DNA from: Terriglobia bacterium
Lineage (GTDB): Bacteria; Acidobacteriota; Terriglobia; 20CM-2-55-15
Reading direction: 5' to 3'
NCBI GenBank assembly: GCA_965206125.1
Contig: CBDBIN010000041.1
Location: 155,674 to 219,673, forward strand
DNA length: 64,000 nt
Positions 2,807 to 62,695 of this stretch are shown here, piece after piece; position 1 is the stretch's first letter; every line of letters starts with the position of its first letter. Both the position numbers and the translations under genes were made by a program. The notes beneath the pieces were generated by a model that searched no databases, was not told where the DNA came from, and was given only the letters and a program-made list of their open reading frames with translations.

Positions 2807-3490
2807 TCACGCAACCTTCTTCTTCGATCTCGTCGACGTCTTCGCCTCAATCTTCAGCTCCCGCCTGAGGGCTTCGCGGAGCTTTGGAAGATGACGGTAG
2901 CCGATCACCTTCCTCAAGCGTCGTTCGATGTCGATGAGCGCCGTCGCCAACCAGCGCTGCCGCTGGCTCGAGTTCTTCCAATGATCGACCTTCGCGCACC
3001 TTTCCTCGACGAGGGCATTGACCGATTCCAAGCAATTCGTCGTCTTGAACGAACGGCCCAGGACCCCGTACACGCCGAGTCGATGCAACGTGAGGGTCTC
3101 CTCCAGGCCTTCCTCAAGGCTCGCAGCGGCCGATTGGTTTCGCTCCTCGAGCTCTCCATGGAGCTGTTCGAGGGCCGCCCGGGCTTCGTTGTACTCCGGG
3201 CGCTGGTACGCACGCTGAAGCCGCTTGCGCCACGCGGCTTGCTCGGTCTTCGACAGGTAGCTCACCACGTTCTCGCGTTTGTGCCATTGGCAGCGTTGGA
3301 CCAGGGCTCGATTACCGAATGCCCGCTTGACTGCCGCGCGCAGACCTTTGCCGCCGTCGACGATCACCAGCACGCCTTCAGAGATGTCCAGGCCTCGCTC
3401 CATCAATGAACGGAGAAACGGAGTCAGTACCTGCTCGTTCTCCGTACTCGTCTCCACGAAGCCTAAGAAGCGTTTGTCGCCCGTAACCAT
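2807..3490 (-). mobile_element. IS256-family (Mutator-like) transposase, C-terminal half fragment
   Basis: 227-aa ORF with the IS256 C-terminal signature (...QRCQWHKRENVVSYL...). It lacks the N-terminal ~170 aa that carry the first DDE residues. The fragment abuts the truncated kinase gene at 3490/3494. Confidence 0.75.
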
Positions 3491-3634
3491 GCTGCACTAG
3501 AGCGCCAGGCTGACGAGCGAGCGGCCTTTTTAGACGAGATCTGCCTCGACGACGCAGATCTGCGCCGGGAGGTCGAATCACTGCTCGGCTACGCGTCCAA
3601 AGCGGAAGGATTCATCCAAGAACCCGCTCTGGAT

Positions 3635-6334: not shown

Positions 6335-6427
6335 GGCACCGAACTGCTCAGCCGTAAGGCACCCCAGGAACTCCTGAGCGAGGTCCTAGGCATCCACATA
6401 CATGTGTAACGCTGACCCTTCCACAGA

Positions 6428-7261: not shown

Positions 7262-7387
7262 GGTGTCGACCTCCCGGGCCGGGTGTCATTGGCCCTCGCA
7301 TCGGGAGGCGGAAACCGCCGTCAAAAACCGGCAAACGTGCTGGAGATTTCCGTTTCAGAGCCTGAAAATTTCCTACTTTGCTTGCCA

Positions 7388-8600: not shown

Positions 8601-8646
8601 TCAGCCTAGAATGTGGGCACTTGTAAGTCACTGACAAACCGGGGTC

Positions 8647-9185
8647 ATGCCCATGAAGGCGTCTTCGTCTGCGGAGGTAACCGGCCTACTCCTTGCCTGG
8701 CGGCAAGGGGACGATGCAGCTCTCGAGCAGCTCATGCCCGTCGTCTACGCGGAGCTGCGCCGACGAGCGCAGCACTACATGGCCGGGGAGAGGGCCGGGC
8801 AGCTCTCACCACGTTGTTGCTCGTCGCCGTCGCCACCATCGCCGCGTGGAACTTGAAGCCATCCGACCCCCGGCCCGTAAGCCGATTTGTCATTGAGCTA
8901 CCGGAGGACCAGGTTCTGACTTCGGTCGGTGGTTCTGTGGTCTTTTCGCCAGATGGAACTCGAGTCGTATACGCCGCAAGCGGAGGACTCTACCTACGCT
9001 CAATCGATACACTGGGCGCGACACTGATTCCTGGGACCGAAGGGATATCTGGCAGCCCGTTCTTCTCTCCTGACGGCGAGTGGGTCGGTTATCGCTCAGC
9101 CGACCAGTTAATGAAGATCGCCCTCACTGGTGGCCCCCCTGTGAGTCTGTGCGACGCCGGCCCTCTGTACGGTGCTAGTCCCTGA
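8647..9185 (+). pseudogene. Degenerate kinase-family gene: ECF-sigma-like N-terminal region joined by deletion/frameshift to the TM + TolB-propeller start; kinase domain absent
   Basis: Frame 1 encodes TGLLLAWRQGDDAALEQLMPVVYAELRRRAQHYMAGERAGQL (sigma-70 region-2-like start of this kinase family). Frame 2 continues ...LTTLLLVAVATIAAWNLK...VVFSPDGTRVVYAAS...SPFFSPDGEWVGY. The gene ends at the IS1380-like insertion. Confidence 0.6.
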
Positions 9186-11027: not shown

Positions 11028-11636
11028 GCTAGTTGGGGCACGGACGACACCATTCTCTTTGGGCAGTCCGAAGGCATCATGCGTGTTTCCGCTAACGGCG
11101 GGATTCCGGAGACGCTGGTACCAGCGGAGAGAGGAGAACGGTTTTTTGGCCCGCAGATCCTGCCCGACGGGGATTCGTTGCTCTACACGGTGGCGGTCTG
11201 GATGAACCCCCGTGCGACCCTCTGGGATGAAGCCCAGGTTGTCATCCGGTCGCTGGAAACGGGGGATGAGAAATCGCTGTTTGAAGGCCACGATGCCCGA
11301 TATCTATCTACGGGGCATCTCGTGTACATCTCAGCGGATGTTGTGTATGCCATTCCCTTTGATTTGGCCCGTCTGGAATCCTCGGGCGAGTCGGTTCCAG
11401 TTGTGAATGGCGTTGCGCGAACCCCGCCCGCTTTAACAGTGGACTCGACTGGGGATGGGCATTTCGGTCTCTCTAATCAAGGTTCGCTGGTGTACGTTCC
11501 TGCCGGTGTTCTGGGAGCAAGACCCGACCCTCAGAGGGGATTGGTTTGGGTGGACCGCGACGGAAGTAATGTGACTCCACTCGATCTTCCTAAGGCATGT
11601 GACCTTCTGATTGACCTCAACTCCTTTCCCTCATAG
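11028..11636 (+). pseudogene. TolB-like beta-propeller fragment (continuation of gene 8647-9185 after the IS1380-like insertion), 3' truncated
   Basis: Homologous to the propeller of 3635-6334 (…LVWVDRDGSNVTPL matches LVWVDRDGQEEPL). Homology stops about 80 bp before the IS30 copy-2 end. Confidence 0.6.
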
Positions 11637-11668
11637 TATTTAGCCAACTTTTCGCTGTTCGTTGCTGG

Positions 11669-12882
11669 TCTCAACGGATCGACGCAACACTTTATCTTAA
11701 AAGGAAGAGGTGGAGTGTATGCGGAAAGGGATGCGATTCGGTTTCACGGCGGCGGAGAAGGCGGAGGTATGGGATCGGTGGCGGCGAGGGGAATCTCTGC
11801 ATGAGATCGGGCGAGCGTTTGGCAAGCTGTCATCGTCTGTATATTGTCAGCTGGCGCATACCGGAGGCATTCGTCCTCGACCACGACGACGGTCGAGGTT
11901 GGCTTTGAGCCTGTCGGAACGTGAGGAGATCTCCCGCGGGATCGCGGCCGAGCAGTCGTTGAGTTCGATCGCAGAGTGTCTGGGGCGTTCACCCTCGACG
12001 GTGAGCCGGGAGATCCAGCGCAATGGGGGCTATGATGACTACCGGGCGTCTGTCGCCGATGAACAGGCTTGGAACCGGGCCCGTCGCCCGAAGCGATGTC
12101 AGTTGGGTCGCCATCCGCGGTTACGGCGAATGGTGGCGAGGAAGCTCCGGCGGAATTGGTTGCCCGAACAGATCGCCGGCTGGCTGAAGCGATCCTATCC
12201 AGAGGATGAGTCGTATCACGTGTCCCACGAGACGATCTATCGCAGACTATTCGTGCAGGCGCGCGGGGTGTTTAAGAAAGAACTACTTAGACATCTGAGG
12301 TCGAGACGAACGATTCGTCGATCCCGACATTCCAGTCACAAAGGTCACGGGAAAGGGGATCTCGCCGATATCGTATCGATTCGTGAGCGCCCGGCCGAGG
12401 TCGAAGATCGTGCCGTTCCCGGTCACTGGGAGGGAGATCTGATAGTGGGATCGAACAACACCTACATTGCGACCCTGGTCGAACGCCATACCCGTTACGT
12501 GATGTTGGTGAAAGTGTCGGATAAACAGACCAAGACCGTCGTGCCTGCACTGATCAAGCACGCGAAGAAACTACCGACCGAGCTGTATAAATCGCTGACC
12601 TGGGATCGCGGCAAGGAAATGGGAGATCATCGGCGGTTTACCCTGGCGACCGACATCGACGTCTACTTCTGCGATCCGCAGAGTCCATGGCAACGTGGTT
12701 CCAATGAAAACACGAATGGCCTGCTCCGACAGTACTTCCCAAAGAGAACCGACTTATCGGTGCACTCGCAGGCGCACCTGAACAAGGTGGCACGTGAGCT
12801 CAATGAACGGCCGCGTAAGACGCTGGAGTTTGAAACTCCAGCAGAACGATTCAACGCTTGTGTTGCATCGATCGGTTGAGGT
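11669..12882 (+). mobile_element. IS30-family insertion sequence, copy 2; inverted relative to copy 1
   Basis: The whole element, including 41 bp upstream of the ATG and the IR overlapping the transposase stop, matches copy 1. Flanks are unrelated. Confidence 0.85.
11710..12879 (+). CDS. IS30-family DDE transposase (389 aa), near-identical to 7390-8559
   Basis: Same motifs as copy 1. Five aa substitutions. Confidence 0.9.
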   Translation: MECMRKGMRFGFTAAEKAEVWDRWRRGESLHEIGRAFGKLSSSVYCQLAHTGGIRPRPRRRSRLALSLSEREEISRGIAAEQSLSSIAECLGRSPSTVSREIQRNGGYDDYRASVADEQAWNRARRPKRCQLGRHPRLRRMVARKLRRNWLPEQIAGWLKRSYPEDESYHVSHETIYRRLFVQARGVFKKELLRHLRSRRTIRRSRHSSHKGHGKGDLADIVSIRERPAEVEDRAVPGHWEGDLIVGSNNTYIATLVERHTRYVMLVKVSDKQTKTVVPALIKHAKKLPTELYKSLTWDRGKEMGDHRRFTLATDIDVYFCDPQSPWQRGSNENTNGLLRQYFPKRTDLSVHSQAHLNKVARELNERPRKTLEFETPAERFNACVASIG

Positions 12883-12907
12883 GGCATTTCAACAGGGACT
12901 TCTAACC

Positions 12908-41118: not shown

Positions 41119-42267
41119 TCAGCGCAATAGTCTCAGGAGCGAAAGTGAACCCCGTGGCCTGGGGATCCTCCGTTTTCCTCGCTCATGAACTTTGTCATCT
41201 TGATCCGGATGTTGCCACCCTCCTGTGGGGTTTCGCCGAGATTGGTGTCGGGAATCCGGGTCAAGGGTGACTGTATGCGGATCGGAAAAGGTCTGTCCCG
41301 TGGTAGACCCGATTCCGACGACGGTCGGTCCCGCAAAGTTCAGGGTTTCCCCGCTGGCTGCGCGGTCCGACGAATCGTCGAAGACTGTCTGGCTGCCAAT
41401 CTCCAACTTCTCATAGAAGGCGGTCACAGTGTATTCCGCCTTGAAACTGGTGATCGTGATGTCGCTCGATCCATGGTTTTGGATCACAAACTCTACCTCG
41501 CTGCCCGACGACAGTGAGACGCCGCTATCGTTGACGTAAACGAGTCCGGGATCGATTGCGAGACTCCGGTTTCCGAACGGAATGTCAGCGAATGTGTAGG
41601 CTCCGTCGTCATCGGTGTCGGTCTCCTGCTCGACGAAGACTCCATCCTGGGGGTGGTTGATCTTTACGTTTACTCCCACCAGGGGATTCCTTCCAGCATC
41701 CCGTACGTACCCGACAACAGTGGACAACATCTCCGTCCTGTAGATCTCCGTCGTGAGATCGTCTCCTCCTCCAACCGCCGCATCCGGTCCGTAACTGAAA
41801 ACTCGGGCCCGGTACTCCTGCCCTGTCGTCGTGCTCGTAGCTGTTTCGACAACGTACTGGATCGGGTTGCCCCACGCATCGAGATCGATCTGATCGAAGA
41901 ATCGGAGTGGTCCTACGTCGAGGTACGGGCCGGTCCATCCGCGGCCCAGCTTTAGGGAGGTGTCAAAGGTATAGCCGGGCTGAGACCCTGCGATCCAGAG
42001 ATCCTCCAGGGAAGAGGGCAGAGAGCCCATGCCAGCCAGCAGGCCAAAATCCATCCGTGCTTCCTTGGTTACGATACGCGGATTGCCTATCAACGCCCTC
42101 TTCAGCATGGAAAGCTTGGCGATCGTCTCCTGTTCGCGGGAGAAGTTCACTTGCTGATCGACGAGTGTTCCTGTTCCGACCACCAGCAGAGCGGTGATCG
42201 CGACGGAAACGATGGCTTCTAAAAGAGTAAAACCCCGGCTGCACCGATAATAATCCGTGATCGTCAT
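41119..42267 (-). CDS. Prepilin-type N-terminal cleavage/methylation domain protein with a GspG-like segment (DAWGNPIQY) and a CarbopepD_reg-like domain
   Basis: RG|FTLLEAIVSVAITALLVV (Glu+5) class-III signal. VGYVRDAGRNPLVGVNVKI resembles a carboxypeptidase regulatory domain. Confidence 0.55.
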   Translation of the reverse strand: MTITDYYRCSRGFTLLEAIVSVAITALLVVGTGTLVDQQVNFSREQETIAKLSMLKRALIGNPRIVTKEARMDFGLLAGMGSLPSSLEDLWIAGSQPGYTFDTSLKLGRGWTGPYLDVGPLRFFDQIDLDAWGNPIQYVVETATSTTTGQEYRARVFSYGPDAAVGGGDDLTTEIYRTEMLSTVVGYVRDAGRNPLVGVNVKINHPQDGVFVEQETDTDDDGAYTFADIPFGNRSLAIDPGLVYVNDSGVSLSSGSEVEFVIQNHGSSDITITSFKAEYTVTAFYEKLEIGSQTVFDDSSDRAASGETLNFAGPTVVGIGSTTGQTFSDPHTVTLDPDSRHQSRRNPTGGWQHPDQDDKVHERGKRRIPRPRGSLSLLRLLR

Positions 42268-42477
42268 CACTCCGATATTATGGCTTTGGGACCTAGTGGT
42301 TGCAACCATTTGTGGCGTCGTAAGGGACGGTGTGGCGCCGTCGGAACTTGCGGACCGGTTCGTGCTTGGCACGTCACGACCCGGGTTCCTTAAGGTTGGA
42401 CAAATTCTTCCGGAAGCAGAGCGGACCCTCCGGGGAGGGTCCGTAAGGAACGAGCAGAACAGGTGTTGGGCCGCGGG

Positions 42478-43071
42478 TCACCGGATGCGGTGGACGATGT
42501 CGTCGCCGCCGACCGCGAACGCGGCGACGTTGGGGTCCTGGTCGTATTCCGTGTCGAGCGTCTTGTCGGGTCCCGCCGAGATCACGAAAACGGCTTCCTC
42601 CTGGCCAGGCTTCAGGAAAGTCGCGTTCAGGTAATACTTGGTCCCCCAGGGGTCCGTGGAAATATCGTTCATGTAGGCGCCGTTCCAGGCCCGAAGACCG
42701 ATCGTGGTCAGCGCGAGCGAGTTCTCGTTGATGACCGCCGACATGTCGCCGTTGGTGCCTGTAGTCCAGGCGTCATCCGTGCTGTTGTCCGTCGGAACGT
42801 CGCCGTCGGTCTCGAGGGCGTCGTACGCATCCCCGTTCGGGATGTCGGACTGGTCGACGTAGATCGGCCAGATTCGAGTATCCGTATTGAAAGAGATGAT
42901 CGCCGCCGCGATGTTTCGTACGTCGTTTCGCGCCGTGTTGATACGGGCGCGGTCGATGTAGCTGGTGATCATCGGCGTGATGATCGACGCCAGGATCGCA
43001 ATAATCGCAAGCACGACGACGAGTTCCATCAAGCTCCATCCGCCGTTCGCTCTATCTCTTATTGATCGCAT
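42478..43071 (-). CDS. GspG-like major pseudopilin/type IV pilin
   Basis: GG|WSLMELVVVLAIIAILASI (Glu+5), and C-terminal DPWGTKYYLN...VISAGPDKTLDT...DDIVHRI. Confidence 0.7.
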   Translation of the reverse strand: MRSIRDRANGGWSLMELVVVLAIIAILASIITPMITSYIDRARINTARNDVRNIAAAIISFNTDTRIWPIYVDQSDIPNGDAYDALETDGDVPTDNSTDDAWTTGTNGDMSAVINENSLALTTIGLRAWNGAYMNDISTDPWGTKYYLNATFLKPGQEEAVFVISAGPDKTLDTEYDQDPNVAAFAVGGDDIVHRIR

Positions 43072-43311
43072 GGTCTGCTCCTCTTTGAAACGTCTCCCTT
43101 GCCCACTGAAGCACATGAGGTACCATGTTCCCAAAAGGTGTTATCTCATTGAATTCAGACGGATCCGGTCCAGGTATCCCTCATCTCGGGCTACGGAAAT
43201 GGTAGACAATGACCCAGTCCACTCTCGAAACTTGTTGAATATTGACAGTAATTGAAGCAAATTCACGTTTAATCCCTTGATTTTCGGTTAGGTAGCAGGC
43301 TTGCTATCTAT

Positions 43312-46337: not shown

Positions 46338-47616
46338 TTACCCGCCACTCGAAAGTTCCCGGATCTTCTGTTCGACACTTTCGACGAATTGGGGATACTG
46401 GCTGGAACCGAGTTCGAGGAAGCGGTTGAAATGATCGATCGCCTCGCGGACCTCGCCTTGCTCTTCGTACAGCCAACCGAGGTTGTAGTGGGCTGCGGCG
46501 CTCGCCGGGTTGGCCTGGAGAGCCTCGAGATACAGGATCTTGGCCCGCTCCGTCTCACCCTCGTTCCTGTAATGGTTGGCGAGGTTCGTGATGGCATCGG
46601 CGTTCCGCGGGTTTATGGCGATCGCCCGCTCGTATTCCCGGACGGCTTCCGACTCCTGACCCGCTTCCAGGAGGGCCGTTCCCAGGTTGTTGTGGGCCAG
46701 GTCGTAGTTGGGGTTGATCACGATCGCGAGCCGGAACTCTTCGATCGCAGCGGCATTGTTCGACATCGCCATGTAGAGCAATCCGAGGTTGTTCCTGGCG
46801 GAGGCGTTCCGAGGATCGGCATCGAGAACCTGGATGTAATAGGGCAGAGCTTCTAAGTAGCGACCGGCCTGGTGATAGAGCAGGGCCGAATCGAACGGAT
46901 CGCTGACCGCAGGCTCGACCCGTGGATCGCCTGCCGCCGGCGGATTCGGCGATGATGCGGGATCATCCCCGGCGAGTGTTGTCTGGATCGCGATCTCATC
47001 CTCGCCCGGCGTCGCGGACCCGGGTCCGGTATCTACCGCACCCTCGGGGTCCAGATCCTGGGCAGCGGGCTCGTCTGGTTCTATTGCTAGCGACGGCTCC
47101 GCATCAGGAGCAGGCACGGGTGGCGGCGTTGCGTTGGACGTTTCGGCTTGCTCCATCGTCGGTGGTTCGGGCTCCTGGGCCCCAGAGGCCGGGCCTGGCT
47201 CTTGCTCCCCGGCGGCCACCGGATCGCCCTCTACGACTTCGCCGGTCCCCGCCTCCCCACCGTCCGGGCTCGCCTCTTCTGGCCCGCCCTCTTCGGGTCC
47301 GTCCTCAGGGGGCAACAGGCCATCGTCGTCCGGGAACAGCGGGTCGGTTCCGGGAGCTGGGTCGATCTCGAGCAACTGAGCCTGCTCGGCCATGGGTGAG
47401 GAGGCGGTCCGGTTGATCCAGTAGAGCACCCCCGAGGCAATAATCGCGCCGAGTACAACGACCGGTACGACATAGGTCAGCAGGATCTTCTTTGTCTTGT
47501 TTCCTTTGGCCTGTTCTGCGAAACCGAAGCTCTTGAGGTAAGCCGGCGCCTTCTGAGGCCGCGGACCCGCCCGCCAGCTTCTTTGCCTTGCGCAGTGCGT
47601 CGAGGATGGAGCTCAT
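46338..47616 (-). CDS. GspB/MshN-like protein: N-terminal MSSILDALRKAKK motif, TM helix, Pro/Glu-rich linker, C-terminal TPR repeats; apparent +1 frameshift between the N-terminal 30 codons and the rest
   Basis: ATG at 47616 encodes MSSILDALRKAKKLAGG. The TPR ORF frame is open upstream to that point with no start of its own (…KAPAYLKSFGFAEQAKGNKTKKILLTYVVPVVVLGAIIASGVLYWINR). Confidence 0.5.
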
Positions 47617-48918: not shown

Positions 48919-50424
48919 CTACTGGTCCTGGGTGCCTCCTCCTTTCAAAGCCTCCTGCTGTTCCATCCGCTCGCGTGCGTAGTCCGCGGCCGTCCGAATC
49001 GTCAGAATCCGGGGGGAGATCAGGATCACCATGTCGGTTTTCCGGGTTTCCAGTTCCGTTTTCCTGAAAATCGCCCCGATGAGGGGAATGCTTCCCAGGA
49101 TGGGAATTTTGTTCACTTCTGACAGTGTCCGGTCGGAGATCAGACCGGCAATAACCGCCGTCTCGCCGTCGGCGACGCGAATCACGATGTCGGTTTCCCG
49201 GACATCGACGATCGGGACGCTGATTCCTTCCGGAGACGTGGCCTGACCCGTCCGCTCGGTGATCGTCGGATGGATGTTCATCGTGACGATTCCGCCCGAG
49301 CTGATCTGGGGTGTGACATCCAGAACGACGCCTTCGTTGATCGTCGACGGGGTGGTCGTGGACTGGACGATGGCGCCCGTTGTTGGGTCGAGCGTGTTCG
49401 TCGTCGTGAAGAAGACGTCCTGCGTTCCAACCCGCATGACCGCGGGTTGGTTGTGGAGCGTCGAAACCGAAGGAGAGGACAGGACGTTTACGGCGCCGTG
49501 TTGAGACAGCAGCTGGATCAGCCCCGTAAAGTTGTCGCTCGAGATGCCGAGGTTGAAACCGCCCTGGCCGATGCCAAAGCTCTGGATGATGTTTCCCGTC
49601 GTCCCCAGAATCGCCGCCCAATCGACGCCGGTCTGATGGTTTTCGTTGAGCTTGACCTCGATGAAGCGGGCTTCGATGACGACCTGTCTGTTGACGGCGG
49701 TCTGGACCAGTTCCAGGTAATTGCTGATCGTGTCGAGGTTCTGGCGGAAATCGGTAACGAAAATCAGACTGGCCATGCGGTTAAATACGAAGGAGCCTTC
49801 GGCGGACAACAACTGCCCGAGCCCGGCTTCCAGGTCGCTCAAGACGTCCGTCGATTCCGAGCCTGACACGGAGGTTGACGAACCGCCGCCCCCGCCGCCG
49901 ACGGCATTCCCGCCCGCACCGCCCCCGCCGGCGCTCGCGCTGGCCGAAAGCGATCGGGCAACTTGTCGAACAGTCGTGACGTAGTCGAATTCGAAGGTAC
50001 GTCTTTCTAACTCCGGTCGGCCAACACGCAGAAAGTCACCTTCGATCGAATACTCCAGACCCAGGGGCGTCAGGATGATCTGCAGGGCTTCTTCGAGAGT
50101 AACGTCGCGCAGGTCGACCGTGACCGTCGCGGAGACACCGGGGACCATCAGCAGGTTCAACCCGTGGGCCTGGGCGAGCAGCGTCAGCAGCGGACGCAGG
50201 TCTCCGGCGTTGACCTCGACCTCGATCGGTTGGTTCTGAGACTGTGGGTCGACGTCAAGCTGCGTGGCCGGCAGTTGACCGCCGCCGGGCGCGGCCTGTG
50301 CCGCTGCCGGTGTTGCCACGCCCGCACCCGCCTGGGTAGCGATCTGCGAGACGTTCAGTTGCTGGGGTAAGGGCAGCGGCGGTCCCTGTATGAGCAACGC
50401 CGCGGCCAGGACGAATACTTTCAT
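48919..50424 (-). CDS. Secretin (GspD/PilQ/MshL family) outer-membrane channel
   Basis: N-domains, then the secretin C-domain (VNVLSSPSVSTLHNQPAVMRVGTQ...IPILGSIPLIGAIFRKTE...VILISPRIL). Gly-rich linker. Confidence 0.85.
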   Translation of the reverse strand: MKVFVLAAALLIQGPPLPLPQQLNVSQIATQAGAGVATPAAAQAAPGGGQLPATQLDVDPQSQNQPIEVEVNAGDLRPLLTLLAQAHGLNLLMVPGVSATVTVDLRDVTLEEALQIILTPLGLEYSIEGDFLRVGRPELERRTFEFDYVTTVRQVARSLSASASAGGGGAGGNAVGGGGGGSSTSVSGSESTDVLSDLEAGLGQLLSAEGSFVFNRMASLIFVTDFRQNLDTISNYLELVQTAVNRQVVIEARFIEVKLNENHQTGVDWAAILGTTGNIIQSFGIGQGGFNLGISSDNFTGLIQLLSQHGAVNVLSSPSVSTLHNQPAVMRVGTQDVFFTTTNTLDPTTGAIVQSTTTPSTINEGVVLDVTPQISSGGIVTMNIHPTITERTGQATSPEGISVPIVDVRETDIVIRVADGETAVIAGLISDRTLSEVNKIPILGSIPLIGAIFRKTELETRKTDMVILISPRILTIRTAADYARERMEQQEALKGGGTQDQ

Positions 50425-51026
50425 CGTTTACTCCCTCGAGGCGGACCCGGTCTTAGCCCGAAGGGCCGCTCGATCAAGATTTCGCGTACCTGTCCGTTCA
50501 ATTCCAGAATGATTCCCCTATCGGTGATTGACGTTATGGTTTCCGTGCCCAGGAGCTCGCCCGGCCGCATGACCCTCGAGTTGACGACGGCCCACTTGCC
50601 GTTCTCACCCGAAAAGATTACCGACACCCGGTAGGAGGGAAGCGCTACCGTTGCAGTTGGGGCCTCGATCAAAGGCATGATGGGTACGATGATCTGTCCC
50701 GGTTGCGACTGCATGGCGGCGATCTCATCGAGTGTCAGAAAGGGATTGCGACCCCATACGCCCTGGGGCAGGGAGACCGCTTGGGCGGGCTCCGTCCCGG
50801 TGCCGGTTAGTGCGGGCGCCGCCGAGGGTGTGCCGGCCGGCGTCGGCTGGGCGGGTGGGGCGATTACCGCTGGGGGTACGGGTTCCTGTGAAGCCGGGTC
50901 CGCCGGAGCCTCGGCGGTCACAATCGGTGGGGCGGGCCGTGAGCGCCACACCTGCAAGCCGATCACGCCTCCGATCATGATGACGCCGAAGACAATGAGG
51001 AGGCCCTGCTTCGCTTTCTCACTCAT
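50421..51026 (-). CDS. PilP/GspC-like pilot protein (TM anchor, Pro-rich linker, C-terminal beta domain)
   Basis: Position in the operon, topology and composition only. Confidence 0.45.
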   Translation of the reverse strand: MSEKAKQGLLIVFGVIMIGGVIGLQVWRSRPAPPIVTAEAPADPASQEPVPPAVIAPPAQPTPAGTPSAAPALTGTGTEPAQAVSLPQGVWGRNPFLTLDEIAAMQSQPGQIIVPIMPLIEAPTATVALPSYRVSVIFSGENGKWAVVNSRVMRPGELLGTETITSITDRGIILELNGQVREILIERPFGLRPGPPRGSKR

Positions 51027-51607
51027 GCGGCATCCTCAGCCTTGTACACGCGGAAGACCATCGAGACCCGGATCTCCGGAGGGCTCCGGCGGAAATCTAC
51101 CGAAACGAATTCCGTCAGACGCGGCAGGGTCCCCACGGCCTGGACGAACTGGGCGATGTTGCTGTACTCGCCGCCGAACGTGATCGTGAACACCAGGTAG
51201 CGTCGGATGCCCACCTGGTCCAGCAGTTCGTCGCCCGGGCGGGGCCCCTGAACTTCTCCGACGACCTGTTCTTCGGAATCGATGTCGAAATCTTGCAGCC
51301 TGTAGACCCCCGACAGCCGGGAAATTTCGCTGAAGAACTGCGCGACCTCGGCGTCGGGAAGCAGCCGGCTCGCCAGCAGGTTCTGCTGGGACGCCCACTC
51401 CCGCCTTTCTTCGTCCGTCGGAAGGACAACGGCATCGGCATCCAGTTCCTTCTGGGCCAGCACCCGTTCTTGCTCCGCCAGGGCGTCGCGCCTGGCACCG
51501 AGATCCCAGGTGGTCCAGACCGTTCCCGCGATTGCAAGCACGATTAGAGCGACCGAGGCGACCAGCACACGGTCGACTTTCTTCAGAAACTTGAGGTCAA
51601 TAGGCAT
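51023..51607 (-). CDS. PilO/GspM-like inner-membrane assembly protein
   Basis: Single TM, coiled coil (ALAEQERVLAQKELD), C-terminal ferredoxin-like domain. Operon context. Confidence 0.5.
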   Translation of the reverse strand: MPIDLKFLKKVDRVLVASVALIVLAIAGTVWTTWDLGARRDALAEQERVLAQKELDADAVVLPTDEERREWASQQNLLASRLLPDAEVAQFFSEISRLSGVYRLQDFDIDSEEQVVGEVQGPRPGDELLDQVGIRRYLVFTITFGGEYSNIAQFVQAVGTLPRLTEFVSVDFRRSPPEIRVSMVFRVYKAEDAA

Positions 51608-53106
51608 CGGACTTCGAAGTTCACCCTGCTGATGACGATCGGGGCCGTTTCCGCATCGGCTCCCGGCGGTCGGACATTTTCGTAGCTCACGCTCAGTTGC
51701 TCGCTCAGTTCGACGGACCGGAAGTGCTCCAGCCCACTTAGATCCGTGAAGAACGCGTTAAAATCCGCGCTGACGTTGGTCGCTGCCTGCGCCCCACGAA
51801 GGTACCCCTTGATGACCAACGCGCTGGACTGGCCGCCCTCGATCGCTATCGACTCAAACACCGCCGTTTCAGGCACGATGAGGCTCAGGCTGCGGAGGGC
51901 CTCATTCCATTGCACCCCGCCCGCCATCCGTTGAGCGAACGCCGCCCGCCTCTGGGCCACGGCACGCTCCGCCTCTGCGTCGATGCCTCCCTGGATAACC
52001 GGTTCCAACTCGGCGATGCTCTGTTCCACGGCCGCAGTCTCTTCGACAGCCTGCCTGGTTCCCGTGAAATACCGAAAGCCGGCCAGGAGCGACACCGTCA
52101 AGGCGATTGCTGCCGCTATCTTGATCAGTTTTTGGTAGACGGGAGGCCCTTCCTTCGAGCCGGCCTTGCCCGGTATCAGGTTCAGGCTCGAATCGAGCGT
52201 CTTGTGCCAGGCTACTCCGAATGCGGTCGCCAATGAGGGCACATGAAATCGGAACTCGTCCCAGTCTCCCTTGAAAGCCGACGGATCGAGGTTGTCTTCA
52301 AACCTCAGGACATTCGATTCGATTCCGAGTTCATCCTTCGCCCGGGCTACCAGGTTGCCGATCATGTCGCTTTCGCCCGAGAAAAGCACCACGCCGATCT
52401 CCCCCTGGGGGAAGTTCTGCCGGAAGTACAGGGTCGACCGTTTGATTTCGGTCAATATCCGCTCGATCCGCTGGTCCTGGTCGAGGTCTCCGTAGCGGAT
52501 AGGGATGTCGCGGCAGAGCAGGAGCGTGCCGTGTTGGATGAAGAGCACATGGACGCTGTTCGGGCTGAAATGAACGAGGTTCTTGACCACCTCCTTCTTC
52601 CAATAGCCGACGTGCTCGGTCAGGTTCAGCAGCGATTCACCGACGGTGGTCACGCGCTCCAGCTTCAGCTTGGTTCGTCCGAAGAACTCCTGGGCCTGGG
52701 CGACGAGTTCCGTGTTGGCCGTGACGAGCAGGATCTGGCGCTTCTTGATGCCGAGCTCTTCTTTGGTCTGGAGGAGTTGGAAATCCCAGAACGTATCGGT
52801 GACGCCGGCGGGAACGGACTTCTTCGCCTCCCGTTGCATCACGAAACGCAGCTCGCGGCCCGACAGCGGGGGCAGCGTCAGCAGGCGATGCTCCACCTGG
52901 ACACCCGTCACGGCCACGACGGCTTCTTTCGCTTCGAACCCGCGCACCTGTAGCGCGTGGTTCAGCTGGTCGAACCGTCGCTCCGGGTCGACCGAGCGGT
53001 TGTCCACGATGGCGAAGTTGTGAACCTTGAGCCGGCGGGCGAAGCTCACCTCGACGAGCTTGATGCTCTCAGGCGAAAACTCTACTCCCAGAATGCGGTT
53101 TGCCAT
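51583..53106 (-). CDS. PilM-PilN fusion protein (actin-like ATPase fold plus TM/coiled-coil PilN part)
   Basis: PilM-like N-terminal 330 aa (…ILGVEFSPESIKLVEV…), then a TM helix (IAAAIALTVSLLAGF) and a PilN-like coiled coil. Confidence 0.7.
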   Translation of the reverse strand: MANRILGVEFSPESIKLVEVSFARRLKVHNFAIVDNRSVDPERRFDQLNHALQVRGFEAKEAVVAVTGVQVEHRLLTLPPLSGRELRFVMQREAKKSVPAGVTDTFWDFQLLQTKEELGIKKRQILLVTANTELVAQAQEFFGRTKLKLERVTTVGESLLNLTEHVGYWKKEVVKNLVHFSPNSVHVLFIQHGTLLLCRDIPIRYGDLDQDQRIERILTEIKRSTLYFRQNFPQGEIGVVLFSGESDMIGNLVARAKDELGIESNVLRFEDNLDPSAFKGDWDEFRFHVPSLATAFGVAWHKTLDSSLNLIPGKAGSKEGPPVYQKLIKIAAAIALTVSLLAGFRYFTGTRQAVEETAAVEQSIAELEPVIQGGIDAEAERAVAQRRAAFAQRMAGGVQWNEALRSLSLIVPETAVFESIAIEGGQSSALVIKGYLRGAQAATNVSADFNAFFTDLSGLEHFRSVELSEQLSVSYENVRPPGADAETAPIVISRVNFEVRCLLTSSF

Positions 53107-53110
53107 CGGT

Positions 53111-54214
53111 TTACCCTGAGAACGTCTGCATCATCTGATACAGAGGCAGGTAGATCGCCAACGCCACGGTAAGGACGATGAAGGCCAGGAAGACGTAGAG
53201 CAGCGGCTCCATCATCGCGAAAACCCGTTTGATCGTGGCCGGAATCTCCTTGTCGTAGTAGACGCACACCTTCTTGAGCGCAGAATCGAGCTGGCCGCTC
53301 GTCTCGCCGACATGGAATACTCTGATGACCATCGGAGGGAACCGACCAGTTGCCTTCAGCGATCCCGCGATGGATTCGCCCGCGCGAACCTCGTTCCGCA
53401 CGGATGCGGTTGCGTTGCCGAGGACTTTGTTGCCGACGACCGTCTGCAGGATCATGAGAGTCTGTGAAATATCGACGCCGGCGTTGAATAGAATCTGGAA
53501 GAAGTGGCAGAAGCGCGACAGCGCGATATCCCGGACGAGTGCGCCAAATATGGGCGCTTTCATCATCAGACCGTCAAACCTGAGGCGCCCGGACTCGGTT
53601 CGAACCCAGAAGTAGAAACCGATCAAGCCCGTGATCAACAGCATCAGGAGGAGCCACCAGTAGGCGAGAAGGAACTCGCTCAGACCGAACAGGATCTGCG
53701 TCGGGATTGGCATCGGGCCGCTCGCGGACGACAGCACGTTGCTGAAGCTGGGGAACACGACGGTTGCCAGCAGGATGACCAGGCCCATAACCGCAGACAA
53801 GACCACCGCGGGGTAGATCAAGGCCTGGGTAACTTCCCGCCTCAGGTCGCCCTTCCATTCCAGAAAATCCGCCAGGTCCGAGAGGACCAAGTCGAGGCTT
53901 CCCGAATCCTCTCCGGCGCGGAGAATGCTGACGTAGACCTCGTCGAAGATGTCGGAGTGGCGTTCGAAGGCCGACGACAGGCTACCGCCGGCTTCCACGC
54001 TGGCGAGAATGTCCTCAATCACGTTACGCATCTTCGCCTTCTCGGCGCCGTCGGCCAGGTCCCGGAGCGATTCGGTCAGCGATATGCCGACGCTCAGCAT
54101 CGTCGCCAGATCCCCCGTCAGGTTGAGGACGTCCCGACCCCGGATTCTTTCGAACATCCGCGCGCCGGCTTCCTGTTTCGTTGCCGGGCCCGCATCGACC
54201 AGAAAGAGGGTTGA
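53111..54214 (-). pseudogene. GspF/PilC-family platform protein, C-terminal 368 codons (separated from its N-terminal 38 codons by an IS30 insertion)
   Basis: T2SSF repeats (…LATMLSVGISLTESL…, …QILFNAGVDISQTLMILQ…). The translation resumes exactly where the N-terminal piece stops (…SLAG | STLFLVDAGPATKQ…). Confidence 0.8.
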
Positions 54215-55447
54215 TCTCAATAGGTCGATGCAACACTTCACATGAAGAGAGAGGTGAAGTGTATGGCGAAGAAACGAAAGCAGAAGCCGAGGAGGCAGCG
54301 GCGATGGTTCACAGCGACCGAGCTGGTCGAGATGTGGGATCGATGGCAGCGAGGAGAGACGACCGAGGAGATCGGGCGTGTGCTGGACCGAGCCAGAGCG
54401 ACTGTTCACCAGCAGCTGGCGGTGTATGGTGGTATCCGTCCCCGACGGCGGTGTCGCGCAGCGCGGGTGCTGACTCTGATCGAACGCGAAGAGATATCCA
54501 GGGGCATCGCGGCGAAGCGATCGATTCGCTCGATTGCGATGGTTGTCGGTCGCGCACCCTCGCCGGTGAGTCGAGAGATTGCCCGTAACGGCGGCTATGC
54601 TCACTATCGGGCGTCAGCTGCGGATGAGCAGGCCTGGGAACGCGCCCGCCGTCGGAAGCCTTGTCGCCTGACCCGGTGTCCACGATTACGGCAGCTCGTT
54701 GAAGAGAAGCTGCGAGACGATTGGGCACCTCAACAGATTGCCGGGTGGCTGAAGCTCACATTCCCGGACGACGAGTCGCTGCACGTGTCCCACGAAACCA
54801 TCTATCGCAGCCTTTTCATACAGGCGCGCGGTGCTTTGAAGAAGGAGCTCACTCAGTATCTGCGCTCGAAACGATCCATCCGCCGATCCCCCTGGCACAC
54901 GGGACGCAGGGGCCACGGAAGCGGACAAATCAACGATGCCATCTCCATCAGCGAACGTCCGGCTTCAGTGGAAGACCGCGCCGTCCCCGGTCATTGGGAA
55001 GGCGACCTGATTGCCGGATCGAAGAACACCTACATGGCGACGCTGGTCGAACGTCACTCACGTTACGTGATGCTGGTGAAGGTTCCGAACAAGCAAACCG
55101 AAACCGTCATCAACGCGCTGATCGAACACGCTCGGACACTACCGACCGAGCTCTACAAATCGCTGACCTGGGATCGTGGTCTGGAGATGGCGGATCACAA
55201 ACGGTTCACTCTGGCGACCGACATTGCCGTCTACTTCTGCGATCCGAAGAGTCCATGGCAACGGGGCTCGAATGAGAACACAAATGGTCTGCTCCGATAC
55301 TATTTCCCGAAACGAACGGACTTATCCGTACACTCACAGGAGCATCTGAATATGATTGCGCGGAAGCTCAACAGACGGCCCCGTCAGACGCTGGGGTTTC
55401 ACACTCCAGCTGAACGATTTAACGCATGTGTTGCATCGACCGGTTGA
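54215..55447 (+). mobile_element. IS30-family insertion sequence, copy 3 (divergent from copies 1/2), inserted in gspF
   Basis: The left end TCTCAATAGGTCGATGCAACAC is IR-like, as in copies 1/2. The right end overlaps the transposase stop (..ATCGACCGGTTGA). Both flanks encode contiguous GspF sequence. Confidence 0.8.
54242..55447 (+). CDS. IS30-family DDE transposase (401 aa)
   Basis: HWEGDLI, TWDRGLEM, FCDPKSPWQRGSNENTNGLLRYYFPKRTDL. About 65-70% identical to the other two copies. Confidence 0.9.
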   Translation: MKREVKCMAKKRKQKPRRQRRWFTATELVEMWDRWQRGETTEEIGRVLDRARATVHQQLAVYGGIRPRRRCRAARVLTLIEREEISRGIAAKRSIRSIAMVVGRAPSPVSREIARNGGYAHYRASAADEQAWERARRRKPCRLTRCPRLRQLVEEKLRDDWAPQQIAGWLKLTFPDDESLHVSHETIYRSLFIQARGALKKELTQYLRSKRSIRRSPWHTGRRGHGSGQINDAISISERPASVEDRAVPGHWEGDLIAGSKNTYMATLVERHSRYVMLVKVPNKQTETVINALIEHARTLPTELYKSLTWDRGLEMADHKRFTLATDIAVYFCDPKSPWQRGSNENTNGLLRYYFPKRTDLSVHSQEHLNMIARKLNRRPRQTLGFHTPAERFNACVASTG

Positions 55448-55560
55448 GCCGGCAAGGCTTTTTTCGTCCAGAAGATCGGCGAGCACATCCTCGTCCGGCG
55501 CCTCGAGCACGCCAGTAACCGTACGGCGTTCTGGTCCTTGGCTTTGTATTCGAATTCCAT
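55448..55560 (-). pseudogene. GspF/PilC N-terminal 38 codons (MEFEYKAKDQN-[1-nt deletion]-RTVTGVLEAPDEDVLADLLDEKSLAG), cut off by IS30 copy 3
   Basis: Classic GspF N-terminus. 113 nt rather than 114, with a frame change after codon 11. Confidence 0.7.
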
Positions 55561-55581: not shown

Positions 55582-57243
55582 TCAGACTGCCCGTGCGACT
55601 TCTTCCAGCGTCGTTACTCCTTCGATCGCCCGTTCAAGGCCGTCGTCGGCCATCGAGAGCATGCCTTCTTTTTGGGCGAGTTCCCGGATCACGCCCGCGT
55701 CCGCCTGGCCCATGATGGCTTTGCGGATCTCTTCGTTCATCAGCAGTACTTCTGAGACTGCTGTCCTGCCCCGGTATCCGGTCTTATCGCAGTTGTTGCA
55801 TCCCGTTCCCTTGAAGAACTGCGCGTTCTCCGGGATTTTGATCCGTCGGAGCGTCCTCCGGTCCGGTTCGTCCGGTTCGCGGCAGAACTCGCAGATCTGC
55901 CGGACGAGTCGCTGGGCGACAATCCCGACGATCGAAGAGGCGACCAGGTACGGTTCGACGCCCATGTCCAGCAATCGGGGTACCGTTGAGGCAGCGTCGT
56001 TTGTGTGCAGCGTGCTGAACACGAGCAATCCCGTCAGAGCCGCGCGAATCGCCGTGTCGACCGTTTCGTCGTCGCGCATCTCACCGACCAGCACGGTGTC
56101 GGGATCCTGTCGGAGGATCGCCCGGAGCCCGGTCGCATAGGTCAGGCCGGCCCGTACGTTGATTTGAGACTGCCGGATCAACGGAAGTTCGTACTCCACC
56201 GGATCCTCAAGTGTGATGATCTTCCTCTCCGGCGTGCTGATGCGCAGCAGCGCCGCGTATAGCGTCGTCGTCTTGCCCGAACCCGTCGGTCCCGTCACGA
56301 GGACGATCCCGTTTGGGAACGAGATCGCTTGTTCCAGCCGATCGAGGTTCGTCGGGGAAAATCCGAGTTGTTCGAGGCCCGTAGCCAACTGTTCCTTATT
56401 CAAGACACGCAGAACAACGTTTTCGCCGAAGATCGTCGGGAACGTCCCGATCCGGACGTCGATCTGGCGGCCGTAGACCTCGACGGTCGCCTTGCCGTCC
56501 TGGGGTAACCGTGACTCGGAGATGTTGAGGTTCCCCATGATCTTGATACGGGAGTTGACGGCTTTCTCGAGGGTCTTCGGGATGTACGGACCCTGGTGGA
56601 GGACGCCGTCGATCCGGTAGCGCACGCGCAGCAGGCTCTTTTCGGGTTCGAAATGAATATCAGTCGCGCGCTTTTTCACCCCGTCGATGATGATGGCGTC
56701 GATGAGCTTGACGACCGGCGCCACCATGGCCAAGTCCTCCCCGCCTTTGTCGGTGCTCCCTTCGGAGGCCTGTCTCGACGCTTCTTCGAGAAGCGCCTCC
56801 ATCTGGTCGCTCGCGCCCTGGCCGTAGAAACGGTCGATGGACGTGAGGATGTCGAATTGGCTGGAGGAGACGATCTTCACGAACTGACCCGTGATGCGCT
56901 GCACGTCGTCCACGGCCCCGACATCCATCGGGTCCGACATGGCAATCGTGATCGATCCGTCATCTGTCGACACGGGAAACAGTTTCTTGTCGCGGGCGAA
57001 TTTTTCGGGGATGGATTCGATCACCGACGGGTCGATCGATTGATTTCGGAGCGTGATGTACTCGATACCCGCCGCCTCGGCCAGGGTCCGGGTCAGGGCG
57101 TCTTCTGTGATCAGGTTCAGCCGACGCATGATCACGCCGAGCCGGTCGCCGCTCCGCGCCTGTTCCTTCAGGGCGAATTCCAACTGGTCATCGGAGATGT
57201 GGCCGCCCTTGATCAGACGTTGACCCAATCTGTTGTCAGCCAT
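55582..57243 (-). CDS. GspE/PilB/MshE-family secretion ATPase
   Basis: N-terminal T2SSE_N region, Walker A GPTGSGKTTT, Asp box, Walker B, His box, and the tetracysteine motif C..C...C..C (CEFCRE...CNNCDKTGY). Confidence 0.9.
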   Translation of the reverse strand: MADNRLGQRLIKGGHISDDQLEFALKEQARSGDRLGVIMRRLNLITEDALTRTLAEAAGIEYITLRNQSIDPSVIESIPEKFARDKKLFPVSTDDGSITIAMSDPMDVGAVDDVQRITGQFVKIVSSSQFDILTSIDRFYGQGASDQMEALLEEASRQASEGSTDKGGEDLAMVAPVVKLIDAIIIDGVKKRATDIHFEPEKSLLRVRYRIDGVLHQGPYIPKTLEKAVNSRIKIMGNLNISESRLPQDGKATVEVYGRQIDVRIGTFPTIFGENVVLRVLNKEQLATGLEQLGFSPTNLDRLEQAISFPNGIVLVTGPTGSGKTTTLYAALLRISTPERKIITLEDPVEYELPLIRQSQINVRAGLTYATGLRAILRQDPDTVLVGEMRDDETVDTAIRAALTGLLVFSTLHTNDAASTVPRLLDMGVEPYLVASSIVGIVAQRLVRQICEFCREPDEPDRRTLRRIKIPENAQFFKGTGCNNCDKTGYRGRTAVSEVLLMNEEIRKAIMGQADAGVIRELAQKEGMLSMADDGLERAIEGVTTLEEVARAV

Positions 57244-61378: not shown

Positions 61379-62695
61379 ATGGAAAGGTTTCTCAAGATGT
61401 CGGTTTCCGCTCTGTTGGTAGCCCTGGTTAGCGTCGGCTGTGCGCAGCCGGTTGAGGACGCGGTAGAGACAGAGCAGGAGCTGATAGCGCGTGCCCGGGG
61501 AATCCACGAGCGCGTCCTGACCATCGACACCCACGACGACATCCCGTTCAACTTCGCCACCGAGGAAGTCGACCCCGGTGTTCGTGGCAATCGGAGGGTC
61601 GACATCCCGAAGATGATCGAGGGGGGGCTGGACGTCGGCTTCTTCATCGTCTACGTCGGACAGGGCGACCGCACTCCCGAGGGAAATGCCCTCGCAAAAG
61701 AGCAGGCCATGACCAAGTTCGACGCGATTCATCGGATGGCCGAGGAAATGCATCCCGACAAGATAGAGATCGCGTATACGGCCGATGATGTGGAACGGAT
61801 CGCGGCTTCGGGGAAGCGCGTCGCCGCCATCGGCATCGAGAACGGCTGGGTGATCGGCAACGACCTTTCTCTGATCGAGACTTACCACGAACTGGGGGCC
61901 CGGTATGTCACCCTTGCGCACAACGGGCACAACGACATCGCTGATTCTGCAAACCCGAGTGAGCGGCTGGGTGATGAGGGCCCAGAACACGATGGCGTCA
62001 GTGAGTTCGGCGAACAGGTGATCGCCGAGATGAACCGGGTCGGCATTATGGTCGACATATCCCACGTGTCCAAGGCATCCATGCTCGATGCCGTGCGGCT
62101 GTCACGGTCGCCTGTGATCGCATCCCATTCGAGCACCACGGCGATCGCAGACGTTTCCCGGAACATAGACGATGAGCAACTGCTGGCCCTCAAGGAAAAC
62201 GGCGGCGTCATGCAGACGGTCGCCCTGGGTAGTTTCGTAAAGGTCACCACTGAACGGAATGGGGCTGTGGCCACACTGCGGGAGGAGCTCGGGCTGGGGG
62301 GGCGAGGTGGTCGTGGCGGCCGTGGTGGGGTCGCGGACTTGTCCCCAGAGGAACAGGCGGACCGGGAGGCACGTCAGGCCCAGTTCGATGAACGGATGGT
62401 GGCGATCGATGAGCAATACCCCGTGGCAAACGTTTCCGACTTCATCGACCACATCGACCACGCCGTCAACCTGATAGGGGTCGACCACGTTGGCATCAGC
62501 TCCGACTTTGACGGCGGTGGAGGCATTGTCGGCTGGAACGATGCCAGCGAGACGTTTAACGTGACGCTCGAACTGGTTCGACGCGGCTACACCGAGGAAG
62601 ACATCGCCAAGATATGGGGTGGCAACCTGCTCCGCGTCTGGCGCGAGAACGAGAGGGTCGCGGCCGCGACCCAAAGCCAGAACCCGGAGCGTTAG
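61379..62695 (+). CDS. Membrane dipeptidase (peptidase M19 family), lipoprotein-like N-terminus
   Basis: …IDTHDDIPF…, …VTLAHNGHNDIADS…, …IASHSSTTA…, …GIDHVGISSDFDGGGG…. Signal peptide with LVSVGC lipobox. The last six codons (QNPER*) overlap a REP-like core. Confidence 0.8.
   Translation: MERFLKMSVSALLVALVSVGCAQPVEDAVETEQELIARARGIHERVLTIDTHDDIPFNFATEEVDPGVRGNRRVDIPKMIEGGLDVGFFIVYVGQGDRTPEGNALAKEQAMTKFDAIHRMAEEMHPDKIEIAYTADDVERIAASGKRVAAIGIENGWVIGNDLSLIETYHELGARYVTLAHNGHNDIADSANPSERLGDEGPEHDGVSEFGEQVIAEMNRVGIMVDISHVSKASMLDAVRLSRSPVIASHSSTTAIADVSRNIDDEQLLALKENGGVMQTVALGSFVKVTTERNGAVATLREELGLGGRGGRGGRGGVADLSPEEQADREARQAQFDERMVAIDEQYPVANVSDFIDHIDHAVNLIGVDHVGISSDFDGGGGIVGWNDASETFNVTLELVRRGYTEEDIAKIWGGNLLRVWRENERVAAATQSQNPER

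Follow-up and report, generated by a model that had tools for sequence, protein, structure and literature searches.

The gene for the inner-membrane platform protein (PilC/GspF/MshG) of an MSHA-like type IV pilus or type II secretion-like operon is a real pseudogene in this bacterium, an uncultured soil inhabitant and probably a member of the acidobacteria: relative to an intact, near-identical allele it is disrupted by an IS30-family insertion sequence and by a 1-nt deletion, and the same disruption was seen again in independent data. We consider it very probable that this is an ordinary recent pseudogene, hit twice, once by an IS30 element at one of its hot spots and once by the loss of a single base. 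Coordinates (Table 1) refer to the window, which is the whole 64-kb stretch of DNA that was analysed.

Removal of the element together with one AGG copy, and return of one G to codon 12, restores an ORF of 1203 nt (400 codons) that shows three residue differences from the intact platform protein (P0124) of a relative with 97% identity (L001). The DNA of this relative has an empty insertion site with a single AGG and contiguous flanks, and its GGCC is undeleted. The insertion splits codons 35 and 36 (…EKSL/FLVD…), and reading in frame into the element gives a stop after 40 foreign codons. At the deletion site, the window reads ACGGC-GTTCTGG where L001, L003 and L005 have ACGGCCGTTCTGG; the missing base belongs to the codon of the nearly invariant Gly12 and lies outside any homopolymer run. 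Repair of the frameshift gives MEFEYKAKDQNGRTVTGVLEAPDEDVLADLLDEKS for the 5′ stub, the same residues as in the intact P0124, and the 3′ part is annotated in the source genome as a 348-aa ORF starting at Met53 (P0001). The two independent inactivating lesions of the original prediction were thus confirmed, with corrections to their positions: the insertion had been placed after codon 38, and the deletion, which is real, at codon 11. The ends of the element had been drawn 6–8 nt too far in, at an inner repeat (GGTCGATGCAACAC), and the “AG” and “ST” that had been read as PilC residues belong to the element’s own tips. No pilC paralogue was found in the 64-kb window, and look-ups of exact products returned no match for P0001, the 401-aa form of the transposase, the two frameshifted stub ORFs or PilB.

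Contigs that pass through a multi-copy IS can be chimeric, and two contigs (L002 and L251) do fuse the left flank of one site with the right flank of another. It is nevertheless exceedingly improbable that the lesions in pilC are an assembly artefact, whether as a consensus error that created the deletion or as a repeat-induced chimera at the IS junctions. The target-site duplication is a perfect 3 bp and both flanks are contiguous in L001. In addition, two short contigs that are independent of the window assembly, with other samples and other assemblers behind them (L254 and L255), carry both junctions and the identical 1-nt deletion while differing from the window by 1–2 SNPs (at 54563 and 54137), so that the two lesions are linked in three assemblies. 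Because these contigs share the junctions and the deletion, neither lesion is an artefact, which disposes of the assembly error and chimeric junctions that the original prediction had itself named as grounds for rejecting it. Finally, over the ~16 kb common to the window and L001, the pilC deletion is the sole frame-breaking indel in coding regions of the window.

Table 1. Positions in the window of the disrupted platform gene, the inserted element and the neighbouring operon genes.
Feature	Position	Strand	Description
Secretin gene	48919-50424	-	Full-length ORF
pilP/T2SSB-like gene	50421-51026	-	Full-length ORF
pilO-like gene	51023-51607	-	Full-length ORF
pilM-N fusion	51583-53106	-	Full-length ORF
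Downstream operon genes together	48919..53106	-	All full-length ORFs; probably subject to polarity from the insertion
pilC 3′ part	53111..54209	-	Last base of codon 35, codons 36-400, stop; otherwise intact; two T2SSF domains
Hot-spot half-site CCAGAAAG	54199..54206	+	Abuts the left duplication; sense strand CTTTCTGG, in codons of conserved L36-F37-L38-V39
Target-site duplication AGG, left copy	54207..54209	.	Perfect match to right copy; one AGG in L001
IS30-family insertion sequence, 1245 bp	54210..55454	+	Antisense to pilC; HTH_38 + rve, NF033563; ends matched by other copies
Left terminal inverted repeat GTTGATCTCAATAGGTCGATGCAACAC	54210..54236	+	27 nt
Transposase ORF, intact	54263..55447	+	394 aa from ATG 54263; 401 aa from 54242; identical to P0129
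Right terminal inverted repeat GTGTTGCATCGACCGGTTGAGCCGGCA	55428..55454	+	27 nt; exact 27-mer in at least 120 metagenome contigs
Target-site duplication AGG, right copy	55455..55457	.	Perfect match to left copy
pilC/gspF/mshG 5′ stub	55458..55560	-	Start ATG 55560-55558; codons 1-35; frameshift inside
1-nt deletion site	55527..55528	-	Sense-strand GGCC to GCC, codon 12 Gly; extra base in L001, L003, L005; same deletion in L254, L255
Upstream ATPase gene (GspE/PilB/MshE type), intact	55582..57243	-	MshEN + T2SSE

The restored platform protein matches PF00482 (T2SSF) in two stretches with E = 5e-53 and aligns without gaps to orthologues of 399–402 aa. Its residues 1–46 correspond to the T2SSF_N module, in which M1, Y5, A7, K8, G12, G17 and A21 hardly vary across a 21-sequence alignment; T2SSF_N (PF28597) is matched by the intact L001 allele and by a 46-aa stub in L003. 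With two T2SSF domains, a length of ~400 aa, the T2SSF_N module and an adjoining GspE/PilB ATPase gene, the protein resembles known PilC, GspF and MshG platform proteins (PDB 3JC8 PilC model; 2WHN; 2VMA/3C1Q EpsF), as had been predicted. Its scores stay below the NCBIfam equivalog cut-offs (338 against 424 for GspF, 284 and 257 against 700 for the PilC models), and the assignment is justified at the family level only. An A24 peptidase and prepilin-like genes also lie downstream of pilC, and the cluster contains a TPR gene. The best NCBIfam match of the secretin is MshL, at 203 with a cut-off of 250, and the sole match of the AAA_22 ATPase is the XrtA/PEP-CTERM system-associated ATPase, at 254 with a cut-off of 324.5. 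Operon content is thus closest to that of MSHA-type systems (MshEN ATPase, MshL-best secretin, AAA_22 ATPase, TPR protein), yet no subtype model is reached, and no operon protein matched the NCBIfam models for MshM or MshN.

Membership of the inserted element in the IS30 family, also predicted originally, was borne out. The transposase scores 284.9 bits against NCBIfam NF033563 (cut-off 80), with IS481 and IS21 models far under their cut-offs, and matches the Pfam domains HTH_38 (1.6e-14) and rve (2.6e-12). Measured against the ranges used for the family (~1.0–1.7 kb, a single ORF, terminal repeats of ~20–30 bp and a 2–3 bp duplication), the element has 1245 bp, one ORF, 27-nt terminal repeats that are identical at 19 of 27 positions, and a 3-bp duplication. 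The core of the repeats, …TCAA..GGTC.A.GCAAC…, resembles the core of IS30 repeats. The limits of the element rest on the empty site of L001, on the point at which L002 and six further copies diverge from the window, and on where homology ends in two other IS30 copies that the window contains; eight further 1245-bp copies in other contexts diverge at exactly the same ends, with 0 or 1 nt differences where compared. Copy-out/paste-in transposition, with a minicircle or dimer that contains an IR-IR junction as intermediate, is the route expected of IS30 family elements; the window shows neither a circle junction nor a tandem dimer. A scan of genome contigs with a degenerate repeat pattern gave matches in many phyla, and among the matches listed only L108 carries a related IS (~80% identity).

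The element shares with the type element IS30 of E. coli and its relatives IS1655, ISApl1 and ISAba125 a single HTH + DDE “rve” transposase, a size of ~1.2 kb, repeats of ~26–27 bp, a 2–3 bp duplication and, probably, a preference for near-palindromic hot spots (PMC9333248). It stands apart from the other IS30 copies retrieved, with a DNA identity of 65–81% and an apparent hot-spot motif of its own (CCAGAAAS…TTCTGG), and it has a 3-bp duplication at pilC as opposed to 2 bp at its other sites (GC, CG and GT). Elsewhere in the window, two further IS30 copies have CT and TT as their duplications. A composite transposon made of two 99.4%-identical IS30 copies (7383-8605 and 11664-12886) was rejected, as each has a 2-bp duplication of its own.

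The original prediction held that the element had entered a site, GGGTTGA/GCCGGC, that resembles its own terminus; as this sequence consists of the element’s own two tips, the argument is circular. The five insertion sites of the pilC element, a small sample, instead have CCAGAAAS / TTCTGG half-sites in common. CCAGAAAS adjoins the left end of the element at 3–4 of the five, the half-sites away from pilC being CCCAGAAAC at two sites and CCCGAAAA at one, and CCAGAAA[CG] occurs only three times in the restored 62.7-kb window. The right half-site at pilC (CTTTTTTCG) is a poor match to the motif. These five sites are consistent with a target that is a near-palindromic, non-IR hot spot of the form CCAGAAAS-N2-3-…TTCTGG. 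Known IS30 targets include near-palindromic hot spots, at which 2-bp duplications arise; non-IR hot spots of this kind make up the other known class of IS30 target (PMC9333248). IS30 relatives with the same 27-nt end supplied 118 metagenomic flanks for a weight matrix, which has strong information over 19 nt; the pilC site ranks only in its top 1.6% for one half-site and its top 5% for both combined, the elements behind the matrix being just 65–76% identical to the one in pilC. These distant relatives sit in a conserved palindrome of ~34–38 bp in soil metagenomes, a possible parallel to the IS that target repeated palindromes (REP; Tobes and Pareja 2006, PMC1525189), whereas the pilC site is coding sequence and matches that consensus weakly. 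Targeting of a pseudo-IR was also considered, since a 9-mer of the repeat core (GGTCGATGC) is found in pilC at a distance of 6 nt past the duplication; about 1.1 such copies are expected per window, and the idea was dropped because other sites of the same IS have CCAGAAAS in place of the IR core. The 9-mer near the duplication may be a coincidence. A 7-mer of the repeat core is present in another flank.

The same pilC site has been used in a sister lineage by a different IS30 element, 78% identical to the one in the window. This element is found in L003, L004, L005 and L248, in the same orientation and with its junction shifted by 1–2 nt. A single ancestral insertion shared by the window and these contigs was rejected: the two transposases are separated by a dS of 0.9, compared with a host dS of 0.12–0.30, the junctions are shifted, and the site is unoccupied in L001, a closer relative, so the two insertions are independent. 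Other lesions of the operon differ between lineages. In L001 the secretin gene contains an IS and pilMN has lost 2 nt, and L248 adds to its pilC insertion three more transposase-bearing insertions in pilC and neighbouring genes. In total, at least four independent sets of lesions fall in this operon among these closely related genomes, and they include two IS30 insertions in the same pilC codons. Since the relatives carry lesions that are independent of those in the window, the clade appears to tolerate repeated loss of this operon.

This recurrence, together with purifying selection until recently, would favour a reading in which losing the appendage is advantageous (for example under attack by phage or predators) and the pilC hot spot offers a high-rate route to its loss. 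We regard such selected loss or population-level switching as unlikely: repeat use of the site is explained by target-site preference alone, IS are abundant in these genomes generally, with at least four transposase-bearing elements in the 64-kb window, and insertions of IS30 at its hot spots are not reversed by transposition (PMC9333248). The more specific proposal, that the conserved Leu-Phe-Leu-Val codons are a hot spot at which different IS30 elements, in one orientation, supply a high-frequency and possibly selected off-switch for the pilus or secretion system, is decidedly unlikely. The preferred reading, an ordinary pseudogene, is in line with what IS-rich genomes show when IS inactivate genes for surface structures: simple insertions with duplications, extra small indels, and lesions that differ among sister strains; the pilC case differs in that two different IS30 elements independently used the same codons, and is otherwise ordinary.

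The dN/dS values are 0.04–0.08 for pilB and 0.065–0.11 for the 3′ part of pilC, the same as for flanking housekeeping genes, and the other operon genes within the window are all intact. Three features mark the inactivation of pilC as recent: low dN/dS, a transposase that is still intact, and a perfect duplication. The relaxed selection proposed in the original prediction, for which a dN/dS check of the secretion genes had been suggested, is therefore not supported as a long-term state, and only its weaker form stands, in that loss is recurrent in the clade and seems to be tolerated there. The second lesion adds little evidence on this point, because the 35-codon stub is already useless through either lesion alone.

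The 348-aa ORF from Met53 survives, and its translation is possible in principle. Whether its product (P0001), perhaps made by read-through or from an element-borne promoter, could suffice as a platform bears on whether the gene still works. In its favour, the 3′ part is undamaged, keeps two T2SSF domains and has low dN/dS, and the solved structures of PilC/GspF N-domain fragments (2WHN, 2VMA) begin to align near query residue 57, suggesting a core fold that does without the first ~55 residues. We nonetheless consider a working gene highly unlikely. The conserved T2SSF_N module with its nearly invariant positions is lost from such a product, and the low dN/dS is accounted for by the recency of the inactivation. 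A consensus scan of the region, with a consensus not built for this phylum, found no sigma-70-like promoter, outward or internal. In addition, L248, which has the equivalent insertion, has gathered more IS in pilC and its neighbours, as expected of a dead operon.

In the course of events that we favour for an ordinary recent pseudogene, the 1245-bp element would have entered codons 35/36 by ordinary hot-spot transposition, generating the AGG duplication, and would have landed there because the conserved Leu-Phe-Leu-Val codons spell one half (CTTTCTGG, equal to CCAGAAAG) of its preferred near-palindrome. The loss of a base from codon 12 would be a separate event, and either lesion alone would be expected to abolish full-length PilC. 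Expression of the downstream pilMN-O-P-secretin genes is probably lowered through polarity, because the element is antisense to the operon and introduces stop codons in the pilC frame. The strain most likely does not assemble the pilus or pseudopilus.

This type of event is already known and leaves current understanding unchanged, being notable only for the hit at the same spot in a sister lineage. For annotation, it means that the 348-aa “T2SS F family protein” called in the source corresponds to the tail of a pseudogene, and that a functional pilus or secretion system of this type should not be ascribed to the strain. The site probably offers a clean case from nature of IS30-type hot-spot targeting within coding sequence, with one site used by two different elements, and the operon shows that IS are still eroding the same gene cluster in closely related uncultured soil bacteria.

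The platform gene pilC lies on the minus strand behind the ATPase gene, and its reading frame is broken twice. From its ATG the stub encodes MEFEYKAKDQN before the frame is lost; the window sequence at 55527/55528 is ACGGC-GTTCTGG, against ACGGCCGTTCTGG in the closest relative (contig L001, ENA ERZ26167216 ctg494939, ~97% identical) and in two sister-lineage contigs (L003, L005). This places the predicted 1-nt deletion in codon 12, a nearly invariant glycine, at a site that is no homopolymer. The second lesion is an insertion of 1248 nt, a multiple of three, and reading in frame into the element yields 40 foreign codons followed by a stop. When the element and one copy of its AGG duplication were deleted and one G inserted, an ORF of 1203 nt (400 codons) was restored, whose product differs at three residues from the intact 400-aa PilC of L001 (P0124) and aligns without gaps with twenty orthologues of 399-402 aa. 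The repaired protein belongs to the GspF/PilC family (NCBIfam), with a score below every equivalog cut-off. As its best named homologues are from Terriglobia (63-64% identity), the host is likely, from sequence, an acidobacterium.

Features of the pilC locus, its insertion element and related insertions (window coordinates; slashes mark element and duplication boundaries)
Feature	Coordinates	Strand	Remarks
ATPase gene (pilB)	57243-55582	minus	MshEN + T2SSE domains
pilC stub, start ATG	55560	minus	22 nt after end of ATPase gene
AGG duplication (3 bp)	54207-54209 and 55455-55457		flanks pilC element
IS30-family element in pilC	54210-55454		1245 bp; limits from four independent lines
Transposase ORF	54242/54263-55447	plus	HTH_38 + rve; separates stub from pilC 3' part
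pilC long reading frame	ends 53111	minus	two T2SSF domains; parted from stub by transposase ORF
Two prepilin-like genes	42478-43134 and 41119-42372		part of operon
Transposase	9300-10832		DDE_Tnp_1_4; within ~3 kb bracketed by two IS30 copies
pilC site of element			CGACCAGAAAG/AGG/…CTTTTTTCG
Other site of pilC element, 1			CCCCAGAAAC/GC/…/GC/CGTTCTGGGAG
Other site of pilC element, 2			CCCCGAAAA/CG/…GCCTCTGGCC
Other site of pilC element, 3			TCCCAGAAAC/GC
Other site of pilC element, 4			ACGGGAGCT/GT/…GCTTCCCGG
L248 insertion			DDE_Tnp_1/DUF4372 element; beside pilC IS30
L248 insertion			IS3-type pair, HTH_Tnp_1 + rve; in pilO
L248 insertion			another DDE_Tnp_1 element; after STN part of secretin

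The transposase was confirmed as IS30 family (NCBIfam, 285 bits; cut-off 80). The original prediction had ended the element at an inner repeat, GGTCGATGCAACAC, but its real limits lie 13 nt further out on either side: the mutual homology of the window's IS30-like copies at 7383-8605 and 11664-12886 stops at the corresponding tips; a short-read contig (L002) is identical to the window through base 55454 and then enters a different gene; eight other 1245-bp copies in other contexts diverge exactly at these ends (the three compared with the window base by base differ by 0 or 1 nt); and the near-identical L001 reads uninterrupted GAAAAAAGCCTCTTTCTGGTC. The true junction, …L-D-E-K-S-L / F-L-V-D-A…, falls within codons 35/36 and not after codon 38. 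Given these limits and the AGG duplication, it was the tips of the element itself that had been read as PilC residues ('AG' and 'ST') and as a target resembling the element's terminus (GGGTTGA/GCCGGC). In two short-read contigs (L002, L251) the left flank belongs to one insertion site and the right flank to another, in a TonB-receptor-like gene; such repeat-induced chimeras, formed through the multi-copy IS, serve to fix the element ends and not as evidence of rearrangement.

The other two IS30-family copies in the window, 1223 bp each and inverted (minus and plus strand, respectively), are 99.4% identical to one another and ~71% to the pilC element. A composite transposon at 7383-12886 was rejected, as each copy has its own 2-bp duplication (CT; TT), indicating an IS nest. 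Next to the nest, at 6428-7261 (minus), an ORF of 277 aa encodes two domains of the retroviral aspartyl protease type (gag-asp_proteas, Asp_protease_2).

An assembly error at the deletion and chimeric IS junctions would together have produced the same picture. Look-up of a transposase variant (P0130) yielded two short contigs from other samples (L254, ERZ6108624; L255, ERZ23495182), each with both pilC-IS junctions, the AGG duplication and the window's right flank including …GTACGGCGTTCTGG, that is, the 1-nt deletion. With one SNP in the element separating each of them from the window, and a further one in pilC in L255, the two represent a single allele assembled independently. The ~16 kb shared with L001 show no further indel that breaks a coding frame. 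The artefact explanation is therefore excluded as far as assemblies can show, and both lesions are real and linked. At window ~62328 (ORF 61379-62695) L001 has 27 additional nt, an in-frame CCGTGGTGG-type repeat, so that the encoded protein (438/447 aa) is polymorphic in repeat number.

In the sister lineage (L003, L004, L005, L248; ~93% DNA identity in the pilC 3' part), another IS30 element occupies the same place in pilC in the same orientation. Its transposase is 78% identical to that of the window's pilC element, with a dS of 0.9 (dN/dS 0.14) against 0.12-0.30 for the host genes compared alongside; its junction lies 1-2 nt off, and L001, a closer relative of the window, has an empty site. 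The two hits are thus separate events involving two different elements, and a shared target preference accounts for them best.

IS30 targets fall into a near-palindromic 'hot-spot' class with 2-bp duplication and a class 'next to its own repeat' (PMC9333248). The element's sites share a near-palindromic pattern, CCAGAAAS-N2-3-…TTCTGG, with which the pilC site agrees throughout its left half-site but poorly in the right one; the restored window (62.7 kb) has only three copies of CCAGAAA[CG]. At least 120 soil-metagenome contigs (JGI; L128-L247) contain GTGTTGCATCGACCGGTTGAGCCGGCA, the 27-nt right end, as an exact match. Outside it lies a strongly conserved 19-nt consensus (118 unique flanks) that divides into two classes, …TTATCGGRANNTGG and …AAAGCGGACATTG, and in full-length copies the target has a palindromic partner and a duplication of 2-3 bp. 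These diverse elements seem to be inserted in a repeated palindrome that may be REP-like. A weight matrix from their flanks, the elements being only 65-76% identical to the pilC element, ranks the pilC site no higher than the top 5%. The originally proposed preference for a target like the element's own terminus is not supported; on its motif, the pilC site fits the hot-spot and not the own-repeat class. A 9-mer identical to the inverted-repeat core of the element, GGTCGATGC, occurs in pilC at 54192-54200 (minus), 6 nt beyond the duplication and facing the element's left end (~1.1 copies per window expected by chance); as it is absent at the element's other insertion sites, it is left unexplained.

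The relaxed selection originally proposed holds in part. When the window is compared with L001 or L003, pilB gives a dN/dS of 0.04-0.08 and the pilC 3' part one of 0.065-0.11, similar to flanking genes (0.07-0.13). These low values, the intact transposase and the perfect duplication indicate that pilC was normally constrained until recently, and the remaining operon ORFs in the window are all full length. Among relatives, the secretin gene of L001 holds an rve-type IS of 1.3 kb with a 320-aa transposase (L001 14316-15620; equivalent to window ~49998), and its pilMN has lost 2 nt (L001 ~11500; equivalent to window ~52768). Besides the pilC IS30, L248 (ENA ERZ25068966 ctg565548) has, within 1750-10534, three additional insertions with transposases, located within or next to pilC, pilO and the secretin gene, its pilC being further broken into 95-aa and 177-aa pieces. 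Secretin calls in L003-5 are fragmented, part of which may be due to assembly noise where the sequence is G-rich. Operon loss is thus recurrent and apparently tolerated in this clade, whose genomes are IS-rich in general, and may be either neutral or favoured. Double disruption was observed correctly in substance, with wrong boundaries and a partly right interpretation. Relative to L001, the TPR gene (46338-47429; 85% nt identity, dS 0.35) and secretin (48919-50424; 92%, dS 0.21) are much more divergent than their neighbours (96-98%), and the TPR gene has a dN/dS of ~1.2 against L003; recombination could be the cause, or a higher evolutionary rate of outer-membrane and accessory parts.

The operon, which also encodes an AAA_22 ATPase, a TPR protein and an A24 prepilin peptidase, resembles MSHA-type pili in gene content, with no subtype model reaching cut-off. 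We infer that the locus yields no full-length platform protein: the 348-aa ORF annotated from Met53 (P0001) lacks the conserved T2SSF_N module, and no promoter-like site was found upstream of it. Downstream, the element, being antisense, probably reduces how strongly pilMN, pilO, the pilP-like gene and the secretin gene are expressed. In total, the pilC feature is an ordinary, recent IS-plus-indel pseudogene, noteworthy only because two different IS30 elements have each hit one hot spot within its coding sequence.
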